DNA of 63,984 nt, the filler included, from an uncultured bacterium (GTDB lineage: Bacteria > CAZSTA01), in NCBI GenBank assembly GCA_964609495.1. It is 4 parts of 4 records of this genome, joined end to end, with 100 filler letters (N's around TTAATTAATTAA, not from the genome) between each part and the next. Parts side by side here need not be neighbours in the genome. Positions count along the whole stretch, not along the records: positions 33,546 to 50,086 come from CAZSTA010000070.1; 3 more parts are not named here. One strand, written 5' to 3'. Below the pieces are notes generated by a model, which searched no databases, was not told where the DNA came from, and was given only the letters and a program-made list of their open reading frames with translations. The first letter of the stretch is position 1; every line of letters begins with the position of its first letter. The translations under genes were made by a program, and so were the position numbers. This document shows positions 11,447-55,654 of this stretch, in pieces.

Positions 11447-11474
11447 TTCCCCTCACCCTACCGGGGGAGAGGGA
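11447..11474. repeat. Truncated copy of the BoxC/REPIN-like element
   Basis: TTCCCCTCACCCTAC..GGGGGAGAGGGA matches the tail and right half of the core hairpin of the other copies. Confidence 0.55.
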
Positions 11475-11486
11475 GTCTTGGTAGAA

Positions 11487-16577: not shown

Positions 16578-16719
16578 TTAAGTAGCTTCAAGTAAGCATT
16601 GGTTATCCTTAGTTTTTCGCCAGGGAGTTCAAGATATAATTCCCCCTCACCCTATCCCTCTCCCACGAGGGGAGAGGGAATTCCTGAGAACTGCGATTCC
16701 TTTTATTTCCCCCTCCCTT
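16578..16719 (-). repeat. BoxC/REPIN/MITE-like element (runs into the contig end)
   Basis: TTAAGTAGCTTCAAG end; CCCCCTCACCCTATCCCTCTCCC-ACGAG-GGGAGAGGG; closely matches the reverse complement of 47247-47401. Confidence 0.85.
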
Positions 16720-16819
16720 NNNNNNNNNNNNNNNNNNNNNNNNNNNNNNNNNNNNNNNNNNNNTTAATTAATTAANNNNNNNNNNNNNNNNNNNNNNNNN
16801 NNNNNNNNNNNNNNNNNNN
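16720..16819. other. Artificial contig-joining linker
   Basis: N44-TTAATTAATTAA-N44 (six-frame stop spacer). Confidence 0.97.
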
Positions 16820-17031
16820 TTAGCCTGTTCTTCAATCATAGTTTTGAGAATCTTTGGCCGGAAGGTATCGCCTGGATGGTGAAAAGAAACAGTTACTCTT
16901 CTACCATCAGAGTGAAGATGCTGACGATGGCTGCCTGATTTCCGATCGAGATTAAATCCATCTCTTTTTAAAGCACTAATCAACCTTCTGGCGGTTAGAG
17001 AACGAAGTTTTGAGTAATCAATTCCCATCAT
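16820..17031 (-). CDS. hicA: Type II toxin HicA (3' end truncated by the contig end)
   Basis: LISALKRDGF..RKSGSH...DGRRVTVSFH; directly downstream of hicB with ATGA overlap. Confidence 0.88.
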
Positions 17032-17273
17032 ACAGTAACAGCCACTGAGGGCTCAGAGAAGACTTTTACCTCTTTTTCTGGTTCTTCTGGGATCTTCTCC
17101 TGGTGTTCAATCATGCTCTCTACTGTCATCTGAACTACTTCTCTGATGTTTTTTAAAGCTTCTTCTTTGGTGTATCCCCAAGTAGCCCCACCTTTATCTT
17201 TAAGAACAGGACAGTAGGCAAACCACCTATCCTCATCAGGTTCAATTACTACTCTGAAGACATAAATCTTCAT
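17028..17273 (-). CDS. hicB: Type II antitoxin HicB (short form with no C-terminal DNA-binding domain)
   Basis: FRVVIEPDED..AYCP...ATWGYTKEEALKNIRE. Confidence 0.9.
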   Translation of the reverse strand: MKIYVFRVVIEPDEDRWFAYCPVLKDKGGATWGYTKEEALKNIREVVQMTVESMIEHQEKIPEEPEKEVKVFSEPSVAVTV

Positions 17274-17408: not shown

Positions 17409-17569
17409 ATGTAAACTTCGTGCTGGGAATAGATTAAGCAGTTTCCAAGAAGCTTCAAGGGGAATTATCTAAATCACCCTCCCGTCAAGGGAGGGGGATG
17501 TTCCCTCTCCCCTTGTGGGAGAGGGGGAAATTATATCTTGAATTCCCTACCAAAGAACTGAGCATAGCC
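17409..17569 (+). repeat. BoxC/REPIN/MITE-like element with shortened spacer; overlaps the 3' end of ORF 17531-17752
   Basis: ATGTAAACTTCGTGCTGGGAATAGATTAAGCAGTTTCC shared with the reverse complement of 55610-55654; hairpins CCCTCCC-GTCAA-GGGAGGG and CCCTCTCCC-CTTGT-GGGAGAGGG. Confidence 0.85.
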
Positions 17570-17752
17570 TCCCTTTAGATAATCCTCGATCTGAACTGGT
17601 CCCTTTCGAGAGGTCTTTATTATCCCCACCGGAGATTTTATCTCCCTATTCCTCTCCTTTTCCTGTAACTTCTTTATCAATTCGATCAACTCAGCTAGCT
17701 CTCTTTCTATCTCTAAAGCTTTCTTCTGTAGTAAATCCAGTTCGATGTTCAT
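17531..17752 (-). CDS. Small hypothetical coiled-coil protein (antitoxin-like size); C-terminus supplied by the repeat
   Basis: SD AGAGGGA; helical N-terminus; last ~12 codons lie inside the repeat. Confidence 0.5.
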   Translation of the reverse strand: MNIELDLLQKKALEIERELAELIELIKKLQEKERNREIKSPVGIIKTSRKGPVQIEDYLKGGYAQFFGREFKI

Positions 17753-19630: not shown

Positions 19631-20523
19631 TTCAACTCACCTCTCTTTACTATCAGATCCGCGAGCAACCCGATCATCCCCAGCTCTATCGAGGTTAAGA
19701 TCAATAGCATCTGGGTATCAGTAACATTATGGAAAACTATCATCGTCCAGATAGCGGAAATGAACCCTATCAGGAAGAGGAATAGGCTGAGTGAGAGGAA
19801 TATCTTCAGAGGATTGAAGTAGGTAATAGTGCGGATAATCAATAGTATGAAATTATAGGTATCCCTGATCGGCCTAATTTTAGATTTTCCCTCTCGTTCG
19901 TGATAATTTATAGGGATATATTTGACTGCGTATCCATTGGAGAGCATCGCTAAGGTTATAGTGGTGGTGAAGGAGAAGCCAGGAGGAAGGATAGGGAAGT
20001 ATTTCATAACTACCTCCTTTTTGAAAGCTCGTAATCCAGAATTAAGATCGGGGATCTTGGTCTCAGCTAAGAAGTTAGCTAGATAAGCAAGTATCGCCTT
20101 TGCTGGTTTCCTCAGCAACGGTATCTTGACGCTCTCCCCGATCCTTGCCCCTACCACCATATCATAATCTCCAATATAGCTTAGCATCTCTGGTATCCTA
20201 TCGTTAGGATAGGTGCCATCAGCATCGGTGATAACGATTATATCGCCTGAGGAATGACGAATTCCCGTCTTCAGAGCCGCCCCATATCCTCTATTCTCAT
20301 TATGCTGGATAAGTTTAACATCCTCTTGTTGCTGGACGATCTCAGCGGTTTTATCACTCGATCCGTCGTCGATAGCGATGATCTCATAATCCCAGCCGCT
20401 CTCGGACATAACATCTTTGATGTTATCTAGGACTTTGGGGATCCCCTTTTCTTCATTGAACATAGGAATAACAACGGTAACTTTCGCCAATTCAGATTTC
20501 CTTTCAGAGCTATTCAAATTCAT
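19627..20523 (-). CDS. Glycosyltransferase family 2 (DPM1/polyprenol-phosphate sugar transferase-like)
   Basis: VVIPMFNEE; IDDGSSD; NRGYGAALKTG; TDADGTY; DLNSGLR; two C-terminal TMs. Confidence 0.92.
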   Translation of the reverse strand: MNLNSSERKSELAKVTVVIPMFNEEKGIPKVLDNIKDVMSESGWDYEIIAIDDGSSDKTAEIVQQQEDVKLIQHNENRGYGAALKTGIRHSSGDIIVITDADGTYPNDRIPEMLSYIGDYDMVVGARIGESVKIPLLRKPAKAILAYLANFLAETKIPDLNSGLRAFKKEVVMKYFPILPPGFSFTTTITLAMLSNGYAVKYIPINYHEREGKSKIRPIRDTYNFILLIIRTITYFNPLKIFLSLSLFLFLIGFISAIWTMIVFHNVTDTQMLLILTSIELGMIGLLADLIVKRGELK

Positions 20524-20953
20524 TTTCTAAAAGCACCGCAGAGTGGGTAAAACCCCTCTTTTTATAGAATTCTATAGCTGAGGTATTATCACTTTCGGTA
20601 CTGATCTCTATTTCGACACAACCCCTTCTTTTCGCCTCTTCTATCGCAGATTCGATCAAAGCCGTGCCGATCCCTCTACCTCTGAACCTAGTGTCAACTA
20701 CTAATTCATCTATCAAAGCAGAAGGTCCCGGATGAAAAAGGGTGTTTCTGAAGTGCACATTTATTAACCCAACGATGTTGCCCTCTTCCTCAGCTAACAG
20801 AATTAGATAAGCAGGATTATCTAAAATTTGAGATAGGTTATCCTCGACTTGAGATGGGGGAATATCTCCTTCTCCATGAGCTACTTCTAATAGCTGAGAG
20901 AGGAGAGATAATATCTCTTTAGCATGTCCTTTATCTGCTGAGATGATATTCAC
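20510..20953 (-). CDS. GNAT family N-acetyltransferase
   Basis: ELVVDTRFRGRGIG; AIEFYKKRGF; start reassigned to GTG 20953 (AGGTGA SD) because the longer ORF start is translated repeat. Confidence 0.85.
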   Translation of the reverse strand: MNIISADKGHAKEILSLLSQLLEVAHGEGDIPPSQVEDNLSQILDNPAYLILLAEEEGNIVGLINVHFRNTLFHPGPSALIDELVVDTRFRGRGIGTALIESAIEEAKRRGCVEIEISTESDNTSAIEFYKKRGFTHSAVLLENEFE

Positions 20954-20969
20954 ATTATGATCACCTACA

Positions 20970-21076
20970 TCCCCCTCACATATCCCTCTCCCACAAGGGG
21001 AGAGGGGACATCGAGATAGAGTTGCTCTCTTTATTCCCCCTCCCTTGATGGGAGGGGTTAGGGGAGGGTGATTTAA
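20970..21076 (-). repeat. BoxC/REPIN-like doublet
   Basis: Reverse complement aligns with 46040-46146; both hairpins and the AAAGAGAGC..TATCTC spacer are present. Confidence 0.88.
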
Positions 21077-21714
21077 TAGGCGGGTTTCTCCGCCAATATA
21101 TCCCAATTACTATGGAGCTTAGTGCCCTCGAGCTTCCTTTCACTCAGCTTGATGCTCAAGATATCGAAATCATCGAATAGCTCTCTTGCGGATTCTTCAT
21201 CGAAGAAGTGATGAAGAACTCCCGCATCGGCTGATACCGAGGTGATAAAGGTATCCTTCTCTATCTCCTCCCCATGACCATACTTTCTATCTCGCTTTGA
21301 GTTCAAGTTCACAAAAGCTAGTCCCTTGGGTTTTAGGACTCGGTATATCTCCCCAACGGTCTTCTCTATATTATCCAAAGTATTATGATACATTACAAAA
21401 ATGCTGATCACTACATCAAAGAACTCATCTGGATATAGGATCTCGGTCATATCGCTATTTACAAGCTCTGCCTTTAACCCCTCTTCTTCAAGCCACTTAT
21501 AAGTGTAGCTTAATCCAGTGTCGGATATATCAGCACCATACATAGAGAAGCCCTGCTTAGCTAAATAGACTAGATGCCTTCCCGTTCCACAGCCAAGATC
21601 ATATATCTTCTTGACGCCTCTCTCTTTGAACTTGGAGACAACTTCAACTAATCCTCCGTAAGGTTCTTTCCATCTAAATTCCTCTCGATTGAATAGTTCA
21701 TCCCACTCTGGCAT
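21073..21714 (-). CDS. Class I SAM-dependent methyltransferase
   Basis: IYDLGCGTGRH; GADIS; RVLKPKG. Confidence 0.9.
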   Translation of the reverse strand: MPEWDELFNREEFRWKEPYGGLVEVVSKFKERGVKKIYDLGCGTGRHLVYLAKQGFSMYGADISDTGLSYTYKWLEEEGLKAELVNSDMTEILYPDEFFDVVISIFVMYHNTLDNIEKTVGEIYRVLKPKGLAFVNLNSKRDRKYGHGEEIEKDTFITSVSADAGVLHHFFDEESARELFDDFDILSIKLSERKLEGTKLHSNWDILAEKPAY

Positions 21715-28456: not shown

Positions 28457-29917
28457 TTATCCTAAGAATTTTCTCAAATGTGCTGCTCTTAGAACGAACT
28501 CTCCTAAACCTTCAGTTCTATCTTCTCTCAACGAACGGGCGATGTAATCTGTTACTTCTTTATGCTCTTCATCTGGTTGGCAATCTATCGGGAGATCTCT
28601 AACCCTCTCTTCAAGGGCTTTTGGTAGTAAACTTGTATTTTGGTTAAAATATTTGAGAGAATCCCTTAGATCAGCCTCAAAATTTATGTAGACTTCCCTA
28701 ACAAATTGAATATCATCTTCATCCAAAGCATTCAAGCCTAGAATTTCTGGTGGCAAACCTAAGGAATAAAGGGCAGATGTAAATGCTATTGCTCTTGGTA
28801 ACGTAATCCCTCCTACGCTACGGGAGTAACCGAATAGGCCTATATGCAACTTCCTTTTCCTTCTACTCGGAACATATCTTGCGATCTTACTGATTATTGG
28901 GGCTAATGTGGTGATTTGTCTTTGATATTCATAAGAATATTTTCCGATTACTTCCAAGCCCCTTTCTTCATCCACTTCCTGGGGCAAACCTGTCTTTCTT
29001 TCCTGTAGTTTTCTTATAGCTTCTCTGACCTGGTCAGGGGGATTGTCATATTTGAATGCGGATTGAATGGTAAAGGTATGAGCGCTTGGGTATTCCTCGG
29101 CAACCGCTTCTACTGTTTGTGGTCTGAGATTACCTCTAAAGGGAGCTGACCCTACTCCAATGATAGGATATATTTTAACCCCCATATCGTCTGACAACCT
29201 TTGCAACCTTTGAAGGGCGATCTTGTTTAAGAGGACCGCACTAATAAGCCCATAGTTCATTGCTGGATCTGACCTCGCCAGGAATACTCTTTGATATTCT
29301 ACATTCTTATCTTGCAGATATATCCTGGTCATATTGTGGGCCTCAAGCATATGCTCCATATCCTCAAAAAGAGGTATAACGTTAATTGTTTCAGGCTTGA
29401 ATTCTCCGATCCATTCGGCGATCGTTATATCACCTTCCCTAAAGGGTTTATTCTGTTTTCCCACCACAAAATCGCAATAGTATCGGTAAATTCTATTAAG
29501 GCACTTAGGAGAAGCTGTCATCGGCAGGATAACTTCGAATACCGGAGGCGTATCCTCTCGGTAGAATAGTTTAGCCGCATCAAATGACCTGGGTATGCTT
29601 TCCAGAGTTTCCAATAGAATTTTCGCTTCAGCTTTCTCCACAGTTGGATTAGGGATCCTTAACGTCACAAATACATCTCTTCCTAATCTCTTTTCCCTGA
29701 AAAATGGCTCATATTTTGTCAATAGTTTCTTGACCACAAAATTATCGACTTCTTTGCCCTCACAATCCCACATCTGTTCATCGCAACTTAAATGGGAGAA
29801 GGCATAATAGGCCTCCTGTATCTCATCTTCCCCCCCAAGGACAGCATTTTCCACAAAAAACGGGAGATTTACATTATCAGGATGTTGGGTGCTCATACAT
29901 CTTGGTATTTTTATCAT
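28457..29917 (-). CDS. ppcA: Archaeal-type phosphoenolpyruvate carboxylase
   Basis: IPRCMSTQHPDN; EQMWDCEGK; FLARSDPAMNYG; GSAPFRG; LFGYSR; LPRAI; 486 aa. Confidence 0.95.
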   Translation of the reverse strand: MIKIPRCMSTQHPDNVNLPFFVENAVLGGEDEIQEAYYAFSHLSCDEQMWDCEGKEVDNFVVKKLLTKYEPFFREKRLGRDVFVTLRIPNPTVEKAEAKILLETLESIPRSFDAAKLFYREDTPPVFEVILPMTASPKCLNRIYRYYCDFVVGKQNKPFREGDITIAEWIGEFKPETINVIPLFEDMEHMLEAHNMTRIYLQDKNVEYQRVFLARSDPAMNYGLISAVLLNKIALQRLQRLSDDMGVKIYPIIGVGSAPFRGNLRPQTVEAVAEEYPSAHTFTIQSAFKYDNPPDQVREAIRKLQERKTGLPQEVDEERGLEVIGKYSYEYQRQITTLAPIISKIARYVPSRRKRKLHIGLFGYSRSVGGITLPRAIAFTSALYSLGLPPEILGLNALDEDDIQFVREVYINFEADLRDSLKYFNQNTSLLPKALEERVRDLPIDCQPDEEHKEVTDYIARSLREDRTEGLGEFVLRAAHLRKFLG

Positions 29918-33445: not shown

Positions 33446-33545
33446 NNNNNNNNNNNNNNNNNNNNNNNNNNNNNNNNNNNNNNNNNNNNTTAATTAATTA
33501 ANNNNNNNNNNNNNNNNNNNNNNNNNNNNNNNNNNNNNNNNNNNN
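33446..33545. other. Artificial contig-joining linker
   Basis: N44-TTAATTAATTAA-N44. Confidence 0.97.
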
Positions 33546-41991: not shown

Positions 41992-42858
41992 ATGATGAAT
42001 CTTGTCCGATTTTTTAAAGTTATACTGGTTATTATCGCTGCTTGTTCACTCCTTTTAGGTAGCTGTGAACGAGTCATCGCTCCCACTGGTTCAATAGAAG
42101 GGAACATAACTGATGTCGAGGGCAATCCCATAGGGGGAAATAGGGTCACGGTTATCTCTGGCGATATCAAGGGACATCCTAACGACAAGGGATATTATCG
42201 GCTAGGGGATGTTCCAATAGGAGAGCAGGAAATATACGCTCGAATTAGGGATTCTAAGAGTGGAACCCTAATGGTAAGCGACCGGGTGAAGGTGATGATA
42301 ACCAAGGGAATCGTAGTTCGCGCTGATCTAGTGCTTAAGAACGATCACTGGACTTTGGGATGGCAATATTATAGAGATGAGAATTATACTAAGGCTATAA
42401 GTGAATTTGAGAAGGCTTTATCTGAGACGGGAACTGGTCAAGCTACGGATATATCATATTCAGCCTATAATGGTCTGGGCTGGTGCTACGGAAGAGGGAA
42501 GGGCGATTATGCTCGAGCTATAGAGTATTTCCAGAAAGCCTTAAATAATTCGAAGGATATGGATGCTAGAGTGGGGCTGGCTGGAGCATACTTCTCGCGC
42601 TATAAAGATAATGCCGATCTCCAAGAGGCTTTAAGTCAACTCGAGGTGGTCCTAGCTCAAGCAGACGATTACGAATGCGCTCATGATAAGATCAATGCGG
42701 TTGATCTCCACGCGCTAAAAGCGGCGATCTATTGGTATATGAGAGATGTGGACGCCTCGAGAAGAGAGATGGATTATGTAAAACTACGACTTCTATCTGC
42801 CAATAATTCGACTAGAGATTTGATAAGTGCCTTAGAAACTATCTTATCAGATATTTAA
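41992..42858 (+). CDS. Lipoprotein: carboxypeptidase-regulatory-like domain + TPR repeats
   Basis: LLGSC lipobox; TGSIEGNITD; AYNGLGWCY; ARAIEYFQKAL. Confidence 0.75.
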   Translation: MMNLVRFFKVILVIIAACSLLLGSCERVIAPTGSIEGNITDVEGNPIGGNRVTVISGDIKGHPNDKGYYRLGDVPIGEQEIYARIRDSKSGTLMVSDRVKVMITKGIVVRADLVLKNDHWTLGWQYYRDENYTKAISEFEKALSETGTGQATDISYSAYNGLGWCYGRGKGDYARAIEYFQKALNNSKDMDARVGLAGAYFSRYKDNADLQEALSQLEVVLAQADDYECAHDKINAVDLHALKAAIYWYMRDVDASRREMDYVKLRLLSANNSTRDLISALETILSDI

Positions 42859-42998
42859 GTAGTTTCAAAATTTTTTGGCTGAGATATTCAAGATCAGATT
42901 AGCCCTTGAATTCATCTTAAATCACCCTCCCTTGACGGGAGGGTGAGCAGTCTTATCTGGATTTCCCCTCTCTCACGAGGGGAGAGGGTTAAGTTGAG
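42855..42998 (+). repeat. BoxC/REPIN/MITE-like element (variant)
   Basis: Begins TTAAGTAGTTTCAA on the upstream stop codon; shares GCTGAGATATTCRAGATCAGATTAG with 45997-46025; both hairpins present. Confidence 0.8.
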
Positions 42999-43057
42999 AA
43001 TTAAGGAGGAACATCAATGGCACTACGAAAGTGGGACCTGTTTGATGATATAACTGG

Positions 43058-43157
43058 NNNNNNNNNNNNNNNNNNNNNNNNNNNNNNNNNNNNNNNNNNN
43101 NNNNNNNNNNNNNNNNNNNNNNNNNNNNNNNNNNNNNNNNNNNNNNNNNNNNNNNNN
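43058..43157. other. Scaffold gap with duplicated 55-bp flank (assembly artefact)
   Basis: 43003-43057 is identical to 43158-43212. Confidence 0.9.
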
Positions 43158-43171
43158 AAGGAGGAACATCA

Positions 43172-43591
43172 ATGGCACTACGAAAGTGGGACCTGTTTGA
43201 TGATATAACTGGTATCAGAGAGGAATTCCATAAACTATTTAGTGAGATGTTCGGGAGACCGTATTTCCAGGACTTCATTGAGGAAAGGTGTTGGCTTCCC
43301 CCTCTCGATATAATGGGGAATGAAGAGGAAATAATCATCACTGTAGAAGTCCCCGGCATCTCTGAGGATGATATATCTATATCCCTAGCGGAAAAGATGT
43401 TGACTATCAAAGGACGAAAGGAAGCCCAATCCAGTATCGAAGATAGGGTTTACTATCGTAGCGAATGTCCAGTTGGTCCTTTTAAGAGGGTGGTATCCCT
43501 CCCCGAGGGATTTGAGATAGGCGAGATCGAAGCGATATATAAGTATGGAGTCCTGAAGATAACGATAAGTAAAGCTAAACCTAAAAAATAG
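43172..43591 (+). CDS. Hsp20/alpha-crystallin small heat-shock protein
   Basis: WLPPLDI; VEVPG; LTIKG; FKRVVSLP; AIYKYGVLKITI; upstream of lon. Confidence 0.92.
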   Translation: MALRKWDLFDDITGIREEFHKLFSEMFGRPYFQDFIEERCWLPPLDIMGNEEEIIITVEVPGISEDDISISLAEKMLTIKGRKEAQSSIEDRVYYRSECPVGPFKRVVSLPEGFEIGEIEAIYKYGVLKITISKAKPKK

Positions 43592-43611: not shown

Positions 43612-45981
43612 ATGGCGGATGAAGTGAAAGATGAAGAGATAGAGATACCAGAAGAATTACCTATTCTGCCTTTGATAGATACCGTGATCTTTCCCTTTAT
43701 GGTGATCCCTCTTTCGGCTGGTAGGGAAAAATCGATTAAAGCCATAGATGATGCGCTATCGAAGAATAGGATCGTCGGTTTAGTTGCCCAGAAACAGGGT
43801 GAAACAAAAGAACCCAAACCAGAAGATATATATGAGGTGGGGACCGCGGCTGGTATCCTCCAGATGTTGAAGATGCCCGATGGTGGCGTGAGGATAATCG
43901 TTCAAGGTCTAGCCAGAATGCGAGTGAAGGAATATACCAAGTTCGAGCCTTATTTAATCGCTAAAGTCGAACATATTCGCGAGATCAGCGAGAAAACAGT
44001 GGAGACCGAGGCTTTAATAAGGCTGATTAGATCTCAGTTCGAAAAGGCGGCTTCGCTGGGAAAGACGATCCCCCAAGAGATCTTAATCAGAGCGATCAAT
44101 ATCGAAAGCCCGGGACAGTTAGCTGATTTCATAGCCTCCACCTTGGACATAAAGTTAGAGGATAGACAGAGGATTCTGGAGATATTCAATCCTGAGGAAA
44201 GATTGCGTGAAGTTAGCATTTTACTCAATAAAGAGCTGGAGATATTGGAGGCGAAGAGCAAGATCCAGTCGGAGATTCAAAAGACTACGGAGAAAACTCA
44301 GCGAGAATATTTTCTTCGTGAGCAGATGAAGGCTATCCAGAGAGAGCTTGGAGAGGCAGATCCGAGAGCCGCGGAGATAGCAGAGTTGAGGGAGAGGGTA
44401 GAAAAAGCTCAATTATCGGAGGCGGCTATAGAAGCGGCTACTAGGGAGATCGATAGGCTGGAGCGAATGAGTCCGGATTCGGCAGAGGCTTCCGTTATCC
44501 GCACTTATCTGGATTGGCTTTTGACCCTGCCCTGGAAGGTTAGGACTGAGGACAATCTGGATATAGATCAGGCAGATAAGATATTGGAGGAGGATCACTA
44601 TGATCTTACCGATGTTAAGGAGAGGATATTAGAGTATCTAGCGGTGAGGAAGCTCAAGGAAAGTGTAAGGGGACCTATCCTTTGCTTTGTGGGTCCTCCA
44701 GGAGTTGGCAAGACCTCCCTGGGGCACTCGATAGCTAGGGCTTTGGGGCGTAAATTTGTTCGGATCTCCTTGGGAGGAGTGAGGGACGAAGCGGAGATCA
44801 GAGGGCATAGGAGAACCTATATCGGCGCTCTACCAGGAAGGATAATTCAGGGGATACGAAATGCTGGAAGTAGCAATCCTGTCTTTATGATGGACGAGAT
44901 AGATAAATTGGGAGCCGATTTCCGAGGTGATCCTTCAGCCGCCCTCTTGGAGGTGCTAGATCCTGAACAGAATAACGCCTTTAGTGATCACTACCTCGAT
45001 GTTCCCTTCGATCTATCGGCAGTGATGTTCATCACCACAGCCAATATCCTCGATACGATACCTCCCGCCCTCCTCGATAGGATGGAGGTCCTGCGTCTGC
45101 CCGGATATATTGAGGAGGAGAAGATCGAGATAGCCAAGCGTTTCCTATTGCCGAGGCAGCTCGAGGAGCATAGCTTAACCAATGATAACCTTGAGATATC
45201 CGAATCCGCTATAGCTAGACTCATAAGTGGCTATACGAGAGAGGCAGGAGTGAGGAATCTGGAGAGGGAACTTGCCACCATCTGTCGTAAGATCGCGAAG
45301 GAGGTGGCGAGGGGAAATACAGAGAAGATCAAGATCGAGGCTGATGATATCCCTAAATACCTAGGTTACCAGAGATTCCGTCCCTCGGAGGCGGAGAAAG
45401 CCGATATGGTGGGAGTAGTGACGGGAATGTCTTGGACATCGACCGGGGGCGATATCCTATCGATAGAGGCGACGATTATGCCTGGCAAAGGAGATCTTAT
45501 CCTGACAGGTCAGCTAGGGGATGTTATGAAGGAATCGGCTCAAGCGGCTTTGAGCTATGCTCGCTCACGAACGGAGAAGTTGAACGTCAAGAATGATAAG
45601 TTCTATAAGGATAGCGATATCCATATCCATGTTCCCGCGGGAGCAACTCCTAAAGATGGTCCCTCCGCGGGGATCACGATGACGACCGCCTTGGTATCGA
45701 TCCTCGCTAATAAGCCGGTGAGGCAAGATATAGCGATGACTGGGGAGATAACCTTACGTGGTCGAGTCCTTCCTGTAGGTGGAATTAAGGAGAAGGTGCT
45801 GGCGGCTCGAAGAGCCGGGATAAAGACAGTCATCCTTCCTAAGGATAACGAAAGCAGTCTGGAGGATATCCCGGAGAACTTGCGGAAGGAGATAAAGTTC
45901 ATATTTGTGGAGAATATGGATGAGGTTCTTAAGGTAGCCTTTAAGGATTCCTCTGATGGGAGCAAGCCAGAGGAAAATTGA
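43612..45981 (+). CDS. lon: ATP-dependent protease La
   Basis: [41 protein letters not shown]. Confidence 0.97.
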
Positions 45982-45996
45982 TATTCAAGATGGCTA

Positions 45997-46163
45997 TTTT
46001 GCTGAGATATTCGAGATCAGATTAGATCTTGAACTCACCTTAGATCACCCTCCCCTAACCCCTCCCATCAAGGGAGGGGGAACTAAAGAGAGCCAGCTTA
46101 TCTCAATGTTCCCTCTCCCCTCGTGGGAGAGGGCTAGGGTGAGGGGAAAATAAATTTGAATTC
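45997..46163 (+). repeat. BoxC/REPIN/MITE-like element (complete doublet)
   Basis: TCACCCTCCCCTAACCCCTCCC-ATCAA-GGGAGGGG, spacer, CCCTCTCCC-CTCGT-GGGAGAGGG-CTAGGGTGAGGGG. Confidence 0.9.
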
Positions 46164-46182
46164 AGATTGATATATAGAATAT

Positions 46183-46213
46183 AGAGCGGGTGCGTAACGC
46201 ATCCGCTCTTTTT
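46183..46213 (+). terminator. Intrinsic terminator downstream of lon
   Basis: AGAGCGGGTGCG-TAA-CGCATCCGCTCT then TTTT. Confidence 0.75.
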
Positions 46214-46243
46214 ATAACCACTAGCCTAATATATAAAAATCTA

Positions 46244-46298
46244 TTGAAAAGATAACCATTTTGGGGTATAATTACTAAAGATTAGGGTATAATTACTA
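46244..46298 (+). promoter_or_regulatory. Promoter for the PorV-like gene with a duplicated -10 box
   Basis: TTGAAA-17-TATAAT; GGGTATAATTACTA at 46264 and 46285. Confidence 0.6.
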
Positions 46299-46344
46299 GA
46301 AGGTTTTTCCTATTCGAAAGAGGATATAATAAGGAGGTCTAGAA

Positions 46345-47244
46345 ATGAGAAAGTTTGTTATCTTAAACCTGATGGTAGTGATCTTGATGCTTTGTTTTGT
46401 CACCTCGGCCCTTGCCGAGGGAGAAGCTGGAGCTTTCTTGAGGATCGGAGCAGGAGCTAGAGCTTTGGGGATGGGAGGCACTTTTGTCGCTATCGCAGAT
46501 GATTCTACCGCCGCCTACTGGAATCCCGCCGGACTAGCTCAACTTGAGAAGATGGAGATATCGAGTCTCTACAGTGATCAATTTGGTCTTGGTATCAGCT
46601 ATAGCTTCCTCAACTATGCCCATCCTCTACCAGACTCTGCCGCTGCTATTAGCTGGGTGAGGCTCTCGGTAGGAGATATCCCTATCGTTACTAAACAAGG
46701 AGATAGACCGGTAGTAGTGGGATACTTCGAGGATTCGGAGAATGCTATCCTTCTCTCCTATGGAAGGAACCTCACTTCTGATATTATGTTGGGAGCTACA
46801 GTTAAAGGGGTATTCCAGAGCTTAGAGAAGCATAGCGCTTCTGGCTTCGGATTGGATGTAGGAGTCCTCTATAAGACTCCAGTTGAGGATTTGATGGTGG
46901 GAGCTACGTTATTAGATATAGGAACTAGCCTTAACTGGGATACCGATCATACCGATAGTTTCCCTCTAAGAACGAAGCTAGGGGTTTCCTATAAGCTTTT
47001 AGAGGATCAATTGATCTTAGGTGCGGATTACGAGATGGGAGGGATAGAGGATAAATTGCATCTAGGAGCAGAATATTGGTATGAAGGGATGTTTGCAGTA
47101 AGAGCAGGATTAGATGGCGATAATCTAACTGCTGGAGCGGGGATTCGCTATGGAGTAAGTAATACTGATCTGGGCTTCGACTATGCTTTCCTATCGCATG
47201 AGTTAGGTAATACCCATCGCTTATCGCTGATAGCTAGATTCTAA
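46345..47244 (+). CDS. PorV/PorQ (UPF0164) family outer-membrane beta-barrel
   Basis: Signal peptide; AFLRIGAGARALGMGGTFVAIADDSTAAYWNPAGL; FDYAF..HELGNTHRLSL..RF. Confidence 0.85.
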   Translation: MRKFVILNLMVVILMLCFVTSALAEGEAGAFLRIGAGARALGMGGTFVAIADDSTAAYWNPAGLAQLEKMEISSLYSDQFGLGISYSFLNYAHPLPDSAAAISWVRLSVGDIPIVTKQGDRPVVVGYFEDSENAILLSYGRNLTSDIMLGATVKGVFQSLEKHSASGFGLDVGVLYKTPVEDLMVGATLLDIGTSLNWDTDHTDSFPLRTKLGVSYKLLEDQLILGADYEMGGIEDKLHLGAEYWYEGMFAVRAGLDGDNLTAGAGIRYGVSNTDLGFDYAFLSHELGNTHRLSLIARF

Positions 47245-47246
47245 CC

Positions 47247-47401
47247 TTGAATCACCCTCCCATCAAGGGAGGGGGAAATAAAGGGAATCGCAGGTCTCAA
47301 GAATCCCCTCTCCCCTCGTGGGAGAGGGATAGGGTAAGGGGGGAAGCATATCTTGAACTCAGTGAAGAACCAAGAAGAGCAAGTTATTCAAAACTGCTTA
47401 A
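47247..47401 (+). repeat. BoxC/REPIN/MITE-like element
   Basis: Both hairpins; ends AAACTGCTTAA; matches the reverse complement of 16578-16719. Confidence 0.88.
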
Positions 47402-47431
47402 ATCAAAAATCATAACTAAGGAGGAATTTAA

Positions 47432-50086
47432 GTGAAAAGAATATCCTTTCGGACAATTCTAACCATTCTTTTTCTGCTAGCCTTAGCAGTCTCAGCAGAA
47501 GCCGCTACGATTAATGTGCCAACCCTTCCTATTTATCCTAATATTCAATCAGCGGTCATTTTTGCTAATAGCGGGGATATTATCAATATCACCCCCGGTG
47601 GTGGGACTGGTCCTAGTGGAGAATATGTTGAGAATGTAGTTGTGCTGAATAAGTCGCTGACCTTCCAATCGTCTAGCCCACCGACAAAAGTAGTTGTAGA
47701 TGGCTCCAACGGTTTCGGAGCTTCCTGCTTCAATCTCATTGCTGGTGATGGGGGCGACTATACCATAGTCTTCAAGGATATCGAGATCGATGGAGGAGGA
47801 GCAGTGGCTGATAGCGGTATCAAGGCTTACTCCGTCTTAGGAAATATATCGGTTGAGGTTTATAATTGTGATATTCACGATAACGTTGATGATGGGATAG
47901 AGTTGCTCAAAGACTCTACAGGAACAGGGAGTGTGTCGCTTAAGGTCTATAATTCCGATATTTACAACCACCTTGGAACTACAGACTTTCCTGGGGTTGG
48001 GATACTTTTGGTGGGAGCGAGTAGCGCTACTATCGATGGAAGCAATATCTACGATAACAAGCTGGGAATAGTCTGCGCTGGTGGAGAAAGTATATCGGTT
48101 AATAGCTCCAATATCTACAACAACTACTATGCGGGGATATTGGCGATATCGCTGGATTTGGCAGATATCGGAGGCCTCTTGAGCTATGCAGGAGGAGCCG
48201 CTTACGAGGCCGCCGAACCAGGGAGTATGTCGCTTGCGATCAATAACTGCAATATTTACGGCCACTATGGGGATTTCGGGACTAGTCGACCTGCGATCCC
48301 CATCCCTGGAGCGGGGATAGTTTTGGTGGGAGTGACCGATACTACCATTGATGGAAGCGACATCTATGGTAACGGCCTAGGGATAGTCTGTCTCGGTGGA
48401 TTCTCTCTTGACTCCTTAGATAGTACCATCACCAGCACCGCGATAGGAGGGGATATGTCGGTCAAGGTCTATAACTCCGGTATTCACGACAACGATCATT
48501 TGGGGATATTGGCGATATCGGTGGGTATTATAGATTTCGGGACTCTTGGACTCGATGTAAGAGAGGCGGCTTATGAGGATATCACTGCCCAGGCTATAGA
48601 ACCCGCGAATATGTCGATTGAGCTTTATAACTCCAAAATTTACAACCACTTCGGAGCCCTCTTTGGAGTTGGGACTGGGATGCTTTTTATAGCGGTGAAT
48701 GATGTTACTATTGATGGATGCGAAATCTACAATAACGCTATAGGAGTAGCCTGTCTTGGCGGACAAATCGATCTTGACTTCCTCTTCTCAGCTACAGCAG
48801 AATTTGATATGTCGCTTAAGGTCTCAAATTCCGATATTCACGATAACGCTTATTTGGGGGTATTGGCGATATCGTTAGGTATTATATACCTCGAGCTTCC
48901 TACGAGCAATTTAAGAGAAGTGGCTTATGAGGCTACTGATTCTATAATAACGGGGAATGTATCGGTTGAGATCTATAATTCCAATATCTACAACCACCAG
49001 GGGGGTGGCAAGGATGGCTACATTCCCCTTCCCATTAAGGGAGCCAAAGTTCCTATCCCTGCCGTGGGGATACTTTTCATAGGGACAGGTGATTATAATG
49101 TTAATATGAGCCAGATCTACAATAACGGCTTAGGAATGGTCTGTCTTGGTGGACAATTCTATTTTGGCGCCTTAAATATCACCAATACAGCACTATTAGA
49201 AGGGGATATGGCGATTACGGTCTCTAACTCCAATATCCACGATAACGCTTATCTGGGGATATTGGCGGTAGAGCTGTATGTTGGGATCGATATCACAGGC
49301 TCGGATTATGAGGCCACCGAACTTCTCCCAGGGAATATGTCGCTTGTGGTCTATAACTCCAATATTTACGATAACTATTGGGTTGGCAGAAAGGAGGACC
49401 TCCCCAAGATCCCTGGAGTTAAGATCCCCATCCCTAGAAGCGCTGGGATACTCTTAGTGGGAGTGAGTAATACCGTCATTGATGGAAGCAACATCTATGG
49501 TAACGGAGTAGGGATGATCTGTATTGGCGGAGTAGAATATTTTGATAACTCATATACCAGCGCCCAAGAATTGGTTATGTCAGTTACGGTTTCTAACTCT
49601 CAGATTCACGACAACAACTCCATCGGGATATTAGCGATATCGTTAGAGTTTCTCTTAGATACATTGGCTTACGACTCTACCGAATTTTTCATAGCAATAC
49701 CAGGGAACATATCGCTTGTAGTCAATAACTGCGATATCTACAACCACCTTCGGGATGATGGCAAGGGTGATGACCTTCCTATCTCTTGGCCCAAACTATC
49801 TGTCTTCCCTATACCTAGGAGGGCTGGGATGCTTTTGGCGGGAGTTAGGGATGTTGTCGTCGAGGGAAGCCGAATCTATAACAATGGGGTAGGAATAGGT
49901 GGAATCTTTATTGGCGAATTTATCACCACAGCTGATATTACCGCTACTGTAAACGGGGACGAAACAGGAGGAATATCGGTTGCGAATTCCGATATTTACA
50001 ACAACACTTATGTGGGGATAGGATTGATATTAGCGACCTTGGCTGAGATCAATAACTGCAATATCTATGGCCACCTTGGGAGCGAA
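47432..50086 (+). CDS. Large secreted right-handed parallel beta-helix repeat protein (3' truncated by the contig end)
   Basis: Signal peptide AEA-ATINVP; YPNIQSAV..A.SGD.I.I.PG..Y.ENV cap; repeated V.V.NS.I.DN / IDGSNIY.N..GI. Confidence 0.8.
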
Positions 50087-50186
50087 NNNNNNNNNNNNNN
50101 NNNNNNNNNNNNNNNNNNNNNNNNNNNNNNTTAATTAATTAANNNNNNNNNNNNNNNNNNNNNNNNNNNNNNNNNNNNNNNNNNNN
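50087..50186. other. Artificial contig-joining linker
   Basis: N44-TTAATTAATTAA-N44. Confidence 0.97.
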
Positions 50187-50271
50187 TTCCCTCTCCCCTC
50201 GTGGGAGAGGGCTAGGGTGAGGGGGGGATTTATATCTTGAATCCCCCAGCGAAAAACTAAGAATAACCAAT
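50187..50271 (+). repeat. BoxC/REPIN/MITE-like element, right half at the contig start
   Basis: CCCTCTCCCCTCGTGGGAGAGGGCTAGGGTGAGGGG...TATATCTTGAA...GCGAAAAACTAAGAATAACCAAT matches the reverse complement of 16597-16680. Confidence 0.85.
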
Positions 50272-55494: not shown

Positions 55495-55654
55495 TTTTCC
55501 CCTCCCCCTATCCCTCTCCCACGAGGGGAGAGGGAACATCGAGATAAGCTGGCTCTCTTTAAGTTTCCCTTCCTTTGAGGGGAGGATGATTTAGGTAATC
55601 CTCCTTGAAACCTTCCTAGAACTACTTAATCTATCCCCAGCACGGAGTTTACAT
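55495..55654 (-). repeat. BoxC/REPIN/MITE-like element (one hairpin decayed)
   Basis: CCCTCTCCC-ACGAG-GGGAGAGGG; spacer matches 46081-46110; TTAAGTAGTT and the 25-bp extension shared with 17409-17445. Confidence 0.85.

Follow-up and report, generated by a model that had tools for sequence, protein, structure and literature searches.

The analysed DNA (the window) comprises 63,984 bases with a GC content of 44% and consists of four contigs joined by N44-TTAATTAATTAA-N44 linkers at 16720–16819, 33446–33545 and 50087–50186. Pfam searches with 55 reading frames identified housekeeping and envelope genes, including those for Lon, Hsp20, FTHFS, GH57, OmpH and LolA-like proteins, together with a weak PorV-like match. 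None of the 55 proteins contained a transposase, RAYT, integrase or Y1/HUH nuclease domain. This result agrees with an earlier note on the same DNA, which had placed the mobiliser of its repeats outside the window. A tRNA scan of the window found no tRNA gene. The Rfam search that had been proposed as a check gave no match at the gathering score across the whole window. A permissive scan of 45900–47500 returned sub-threshold matches only, the best being L20_leader (36.2 bits; threshold, 58.7 bits), and these are regarded as chance. A separate observation concerns 28460–29917 (minus strand), the gene for a phosphoenolpyruvate carboxylase of archaeal type (PEPcase_2, E = 1e-196); the genes with which it forms an operon-like run are of the aconitase-family, isopropylmalate/isocitrate dehydrogenase and homocitrate-synthase-like kinds.

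The focal repeat lies between the stop codon of lon (45981; Pfam assignment) and an intrinsic-terminator-like hairpin with a T run on the plus strand (46183–46209). It begins with the flank module L2 (45997–46044, plus strand; blastn-short), which is devoid of a TTAAGYAGYT terminus and is shared with the copy at 42.9k; the identity between 42874–42936 and 45997–46059 is 86%. Unit A (46046–46080) has its G-rich strand on the minus strand and was detected with an nhmmer profile built from other genomes' units (E = 2e-9). It contains a C-stem (46059–46066), a 5-nt loop, a G-stem (46072–46079) and a 3-nt second loop, and its tail (46046–46055) is the mirror of the G-stem. The spacer that follows (46081–46108, plus strand) belongs by alignment to subfamily I, which is also found in the 21k and 55k copies. 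Unit B (46109–46148, plus strand; nhmmer E = 5.8e-12) fits the published TMECO pattern exactly and is composed of a hairpin (46111–46133), the second loop CTA and a tail (46137–46145).

Eight good copies and one remnant of this GC-rich repeat were found in the window. The earlier note had listed nine copies; all nine sites are indeed related and cover all four contigs, but the one at 11447–11476 (minus strand) is only a remnant, consisting of tail B and a single hairpin arm (nhmmer E = 0.25). Alignment of the nine sites in one orientation revealed a modular order, in which a left module (L1 or L2) precedes unit A and is followed in turn by the spacer, unit B and the right module R1; A and B units are present together in six copies. 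The two spacer subfamilies described previously were visible in the alignment, at 90–94% identity (I in the 46k, 21k and 55k copies, II in the 16k and 47k copies). All nine copies are intergenic, and both orientations were found. As had been noticed, two contig ends fall within copies, the end of contig 1 and the start of contig 4; the other seven copies are internal to their contigs.

The 16k copy (16578–16719, minus strand) contains R1 with the terminus TTAAGTAGCT at 16578, a full unit B, spacer II and a unit A that is cut by the contig end, and its R1 borders the ribosome-binding site and start of a mazG-like gene. The 17k copy (17409–17569, plus strand) has a long L1 with TTAAGCAGTT at 17434, tailless hairpins A and B separated by 7 nt, and R1 lacking a terminus. 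A HicB-like antitoxin gene (17031–17273, minus strand) adjoins this copy, and a neighbouring frame runs into the contig linker. The 21k copy (20970–21076, minus strand) is a naked doublet in which the tail of unit B is mutated, the spacer is of subfamily I and unit A is full; it sits between a methyltransferase stop codon (21073) and the probable start of a GNAT gene (GTG at 20953). The 42.9k copy (42855–42990, plus strand) carries an L2 whose TTAAGTAGTT overlaps the stop codon of a TPR gene, as well as tailless hairpins A and B. Both of its loops (TTGAC and ACGAG, within 42925–42988) are reversed relative to the orientation of the flank module, as if the hairpins had been flipped in place. 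Adjoining this copy is an internal N100 scaffold gap (43058–43157) with an exact 55-nt duplicate on both sides (43003–43212) that includes the hsp20 ribosome-binding site and start; the gap and duplicate look like a scaffolding artefact.

The 47k copy (47247–47401, plus strand) consists of a tailless hairpin A, spacer II, a unit B with one mismatch in its tail, and R1 extending to an inverted TTAAGCAGTT; next come the ribosome-binding site and start of a beta-helix gene. This gene (47432–50134) encodes a large protein of the right-handed type, is cut by the contig end, and has within it DNA repeats (families D2–D8) that recur about every 350–390 nt. The 50k copy (50187–50271, plus strand) begins at the contig edge and has a full unit B and an R1 without a clear terminus. 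The 55k copy (55495–55654, minus strand) lies between convergent genes and contains a full unit B, spacer I, a degenerate hairpin A and a long L1, the last of these with TTAAGTAGTT at 55620–55629 (minus strand) plus a 25-nt extension.

Two minus-strand reading frames are fed by the repeats. The first (17531–17752) is an unannotatable 73-aa frame whose last 13 codons lie within the R1 module of the 17k copy. The second (20510–21106) is the GNAT frame, for which a start at 21106 produces an apparent overlap with the 21k copy. This overlap is best explained by a true start at the GTG at 20953, which follows AGGTGA, the extension to 21106 through the copy being spurious. In practice, the repeats break assemblies and create spurious reading frames such as the one starting at 21106.

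The hairpin CCCTCYC-N3-9-GRGAGGG occurs 13 times in the window compared to 0.01 expected from shuffled sequence, which bears out the earlier description of a dispersed intergenic family of two head-to-head tail-plus-hairpin units. Eight of these are B-type hairpins with a 9-bp stem (16656, 17503, 20984, 42966, 46111, 47306, 50189 and 55512) and five are A-type hairpins with a 7–8-bp stem (17477, 21038, 42925, 46060 and 47255). Further A units are represented by a degenerate one in the 55.5k copy and one severed by the contig end at 16719. A tail had been described for each unit; tailed units do exist, but among the eight B units only six have a tail, and among six A units only two.

In the accessible text of PMC4666352 (Holder et al. 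2015), the element formerly named BoxC or PIT is classed as an intrastrand triplex motif, TMECO, and earlier work on it by Bachellier and by Hoyne/Maher is cited. The TMECO pattern given in that text, CCCTCNCCC N3–6 GGGNGAGGG N3 GGGNGAGGG, had four exact matches in the window (16644 minus, 46111 plus, 50189 plus and 55500 minus) versus 0.00 expected, and units of the 47k and 21k copies are one or a few tail bases off the pattern. Because the published pattern fits the window, the element that was originally called a pyrimidine tail is the third block of a mirror repeat. The mirror blocks are GGGAGAGGG / GGGTGAGGG in unit B and GGGAGGGG / GGGGAGGG on the opposite strand in unit A. Profiles built solely from other genomes' units recovered window units with nhmmer at E = 1e-9 to 5e-12. 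When E. coli was searched with 46036–46152, all 5426 of 5426 complete genomes matched over unit B, at a median of 17 places each. In one E. coli strain, the doublet between flgH and flgG consists of tail, hairpin, spacer, hairpin and tail, which is the layout seen in the window. Unit B was also matched by plasmid records of Klebsiella, Sinorhizobium, Rhizobium, Azospirillum, Pseudanabaena and others. We conclude that the window repeats are members of the known BoxC / PIT element / TMECO intrastrand-triplex-motif family.

The resemblance to E. coli BoxC is thus stronger than the earlier note had claimed, given the four exact units and the match in every E. coli genome. That note had recognised no named family with the composite architecture, a statement that did not hold: the portion of PMC4666352 available describes five MG1655 loci as inverted pairs, always of two types, and such a pair is seen at flgH–flgG, so the A/B composite is an arrangement already described. 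The match to a named element refutes the core as something new, and the flank modules alone were unmatched. What is new here is the host, the hairpin density, the long spacers and the flank modules.

We also considered chance low-complexity similarity or an assembly artefact, given that two copies are at contig ends and that another has a scaffold gap and a 55-nt duplicate beside it. The likelihood of this explanation is negligible. None of 100 shuffles attained the observed counts of either the hairpin or the TMECO pattern, seven copies are contig-internal, and the same architecture is present in finished E. coli chromosomes. The shuffle counts and the E. coli chromosome matches exclude it.

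Species-representative genomes were scanned for two hairpins, tails not included, separated by a gap of 5–35 nt. The A+B doublet was found in at least 117 stretches of other genomes and showed no lineage restriction. The matches listed are a non-random sample and come from about 73 assemblies as counted by accession prefixes. The matches listed cover about 12 phyla by record title, and as they are mostly MAGs some bin assignments may be wrong. Taxa among the matches listed were Nitrospirota, Thermodesulfobacteriota and other 'Deltaproteobacteria', Alpha-, Beta- and Gammaproteobacteria, Atribacteria, Planctomycetota, Chloroflexota, Ignavibacteria, Zixibacteria, Uhrbacteria, Aminicenantes, Actinomycetes and Nitrospinota. 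This distribution of the tailed doublet, by title, is wider than the 262 proteobacterial genomes and the cyanobacterial G/C-rich motifs covered in the accessible text of PMC4666352, which reports 3610 TMECO occurrences in those 262 genomes and 23 in MG1655. No homology to the window was found in the listed other-genome loci outside the repeat.

A regular expression applied to the listed stretches gave 124 matches, 120 of them distinct. Of the listed copies, 114 have full flanks; 89 of these possess tail A, 88 possess tail B and 75 possess the two together, compared to ~0.1% for each tail at random positions of the same loci. Conservation of the stems across phyla is uninformative because the search pattern imposed them. 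The tails, in contrast, were recovered though absent from the search pattern, and on this basis the doublet appears to be a conserved unit across genomes. The central base of tail B in the listed copies was T in 70 of 88 and A in 18 of 88, with C or G in none. Restriction of this position to T or A fits purine-motif triplex triads, and it could be simple inheritance rather than selection. Nine of the 120 listed copies were of a 'tails-in' class with tail-like motifs within the spacer, which the flipped loops of the 42.9k copy resemble. Spacers are 22–32 nt in most window copies versus 9–16 nt in most listed copies from other genomes. Hairpin density is about 4-fold higher in the window (0.20 per kb) than in the flanks of other genomes' copies (0.05 per kb).

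The ends of the window copies were examined with the motif TTAAGYAGYT, which occurs five times in the window compared to 0.55 expected. All five sites are at copy edges: three adjoin the A side, and the other two, which adjoin the B side, are inverted. The modules L1, L2 and R1 share TTAAGYAGYT...TTCAAGAT ends in inverted orientation, and the left modules and the reverse-complemented right module have their first 15–18 nt (TTAAGYAGYTTCAA...) and the inner TTCAAGAT block in common. The modules thus resemble, in a diverged form, the terminal inverted repeats of a ~250-bp element. These features are what an ordinary MITE of a DDE transposon would have, that is, a ~250-bp unit with TTAAGYAGYTTCAA inverted ends and a possible TTAA or TA duplication, in which the doublet is an internal passenger or core. 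Genome-specific inverted repeats that frame the doublet in other genomes also favour this explanation. One Nitrospirota MAG has eight copies whose spacers are identical and which have in common a 17-nt inverted repeat with TA at its borders; the TA flanks are present at both ends, yet they are indistinguishable from repeat sequence. A different inverted repeat, of ~24–33 nt, is shared by copies in a Thermodesulfovibrionales MAG.

Several results argue against an ordinary MITE, which we regard as unlikely. None of the nine window copies has both TTAAGYAGYT termini, such that the inverted ends of the earlier note stand as five sites on two sides and not as a pair on any single copy. No target duplication is visible at the nine copies, none of which has two ends for comparison. 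In the 17k and 55k copies, both with L1, homology continues ~25 nt outward past TTAAGYAGYT, the supposed end. The best-preserved doublets (21k and 46k) lack termini. In an alphaproteobacterial MAG, five copies are alike solely from tail to tail; homology ends precisely there, and an outer repeat is absent. The flank modules had no match in 116 listed other-genome loci, and no transposase domain was present in the 55 window proteins. Taken together, the flanks in the different genomes fit a conserved doublet core with lineage-specific shells.

In one Nitrospirota MAG (loci L025, L052, L063, L074, L078 and L099), extra palindromic junctions were observed next to the inverted repeats of the doublet; in them, that 15–17-nt repeat surrounds TATA/ATTA. 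These junctions suggest tandem or nested arrays of the carrier element.

Structure predictions were carried out for single-stranded DNA and for RNA. The minimum free energy fold predicted for single-stranded DNA of 46036–46152 is one long imperfect hairpin (-28.8 kcal/mol, z = -4.78), a REPIN-like form built on predicted pairing between C-rich blocks from unit A and G-rich blocks from unit B. In an alternative single-strand fold, the doublet can be modelled as two small local hairpins with free tails. For RNA of 45985–46220, which includes the terminator, the predicted fold had z = -8.36. Read from the sequence, the G-arm together with the B tail also conforms to a quadruplex motif of four G-runs. 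NMR on E. coli oligonucleotides, as reported in the available text of PMC4666352, favours a triplex over a quadruplex; the same text reports no stable triplex in vivo.

The RNA fold and the quadruplex motif raise the question of a selected cis-element. Such an element could be a 3'-end RNA stabiliser, a transcription or replication pause site or a protein-binding site (as proposed for REP/BIME), or a hairpin/triplex/G-quadruplex switch. Six copies start no more than ~50 nt from a stop codon and the focal copy is positioned between the lon stop and the terminator-like hairpin; in addition, a terminator role was presumed in the portion of the Enterobacter sp. 638 genome paper that was accessible. 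We nevertheless consider selection as a cis-element quite improbable. There is no orientation rule with respect to transcription, ~5–6 window copies being co-oriented and 2–3 opposed, and no Rfam family was identified at threshold. Furthermore, the copies are mosaic and decayed, and the earlier studies summarised in the accessible text of PMC4666352 report no promoter or terminator activity and no association with a gene class.

Copies at unrelated loci of the same genome share non-structural spacers and flanks, with eight such copies in the Nitrospirota MAG and five in the alphaproteobacterial MAG. Identity of non-structural parts within a genome argues for copying and not for independent origin. 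The window copies are 75–100% identical over short stretches, mosaic and in no case complete, and the suggestion in the earlier note that the element has actively spread was not sustained by them. As for the insertion history in E. coli, the flgH–flgG spacer (L001, L119, L120 and L121) contains in some strains a BoxC doublet, either plain or partly triplicated, and in others one or two REPs. This polymorphism shows allelic replacement by REP elements with no clean filled/empty pair, and is uninformative on insertion. The text of PMC4666352 that was available describes an association of the element with intergenic variability and none with transposons, phages or plasmids.

Candidate mobilisers were sought among the neighbours of the copies in other genomes. 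Stop-to-stop frames (2126) from 79 other-genome loci were clustered, and 18 representatives of recurrent clusters were scanned. Recurrent neighbours at the 79 loci belonged to ubiquitous families only (ABC ATPases, histidine kinases, SDRs etc.), with no mobiliser among them; a search for recurrent neighbours would miss a single-copy mobiliser elsewhere in a genome. The proximity to a RAYT/TnpA(Y1) or transposase gene for which a check had been suggested was accordingly seen neither in the window nor recurrently at the 79 loci. Our literature search retrieved no later paper naming a mobiliser or an agreed function for BoxC/PIT/TMECO, and a search for BoxC together with RAYT retrieved no relevant paper.

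The reading that we favour, and that we consider probable, is that the repeats are BoxC/PIT/TMECO doublets in a BIME-like mosaic, which were spread by a trans-acting activity on folded single strands and are now structure-prone intergenic DNA. The doublets sit in intergenic DNA, often shortly past stop codons, in combination with L1, L2 and R1, and would constitute non-coding, non-autonomous repeated DNA. As to the mode of spread, we infer that a trans-acting enzyme recognising the folded single strand would copy the repeats to new intergenic sites, as RAYT does for REP/REPIN, and that copies would later decay and recombine to give mosaics. At present they would act mainly as DNA that is prone to form structures, disrupts assembly and makes intergenic regions unstable; a dedicated regulatory role is not part of this proposal. 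The designation of the repeats as a REPIN/MITE-like non-autonomous element is plausible.

A broader interpretation is that the A+B doublet is the conserved core, defined by its structure, of a pan-bacterial non-autonomous mobile family, with a mobiliser acting on folded single-stranded DNA and with inverted-repeat shells added by each lineage. The shells would be TTAAGYAGYT...TTCAAGAT here and other inverted repeats in Nitrospirota, with none in the alphaproteobacterial MAG or E. coli. We put this forward only tentatively and regard it as rather unlikely. If it is true, a copy-dense genome would be a good place to find the BoxC mobiliser.

The probable reading, BoxC/PIT/TMECO doublets in a mosaic, can be compared with several known systems. 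REP and REPIN sequences are likewise short intergenic palindromes, found alone or in inverted pairs that fold into one long hairpin, and they are non-autonomous and dispersed. However, their sequence is unrelated to the window repeats, and REPs have no mirror-repeat tail. RAYT (TnpA-REP, an HUH Y1 nuclease) was absent from the 55 window proteins and from the recurrent neighbour families at the 79 other-genome loci. BIMEs share with the window copies the assembly of palindromic units into mosaics with alternative flank and spacer motifs, subsets of which differ between copies. BIMEs are built from REP units, whereas the window mosaics are built from triplex-motif units with the genome-specific modules L1, L2 and R1. 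Bacterial MITEs, of which Correia/NEMIS, ERIC and Nezha are examples, resemble the window repeats in being <300 bp and intergenic, with inverted terminal sequences and possible folding into a long hairpin. The window copies differ in being incomplete and without visible duplication, and the part that is conserved is the internal doublet rather than the ends.

The closest likeness is to BoxC/PIT/TMECO. As described in the accessible text of PMC4666352, the unit of that family consists of a C-arm, a 3–6-nt loop, a G-arm, a 3-nt loop and a mirror G-block; it is intergenic and multi-copy, lies on either strand in variable intergenic DNA, and frequently forms inverted pairs of two types. The window repeats have all of these features. 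They differ in that unit A has 8-nt stems (CCCCTCCC type) and the loops are 5 nt, and in that the two types are distinguished by stem length in window pairs but by the second loop in the E. coli pairs of that text. The host differs as well, being a bacterium of 44% GC and not a named proteobacterium. Density is also far higher, with 13 hairpins in the 64-kb window compared to the 23 units given there for the whole MG1655 chromosome. Finally, the window adds flank modules with inverted TTAAGYAGYT ends. It adds no mechanism to what is known of the family; what it shows is a high density of BoxC/PIT/TMECO units and doublets joined to inverted flank modules.
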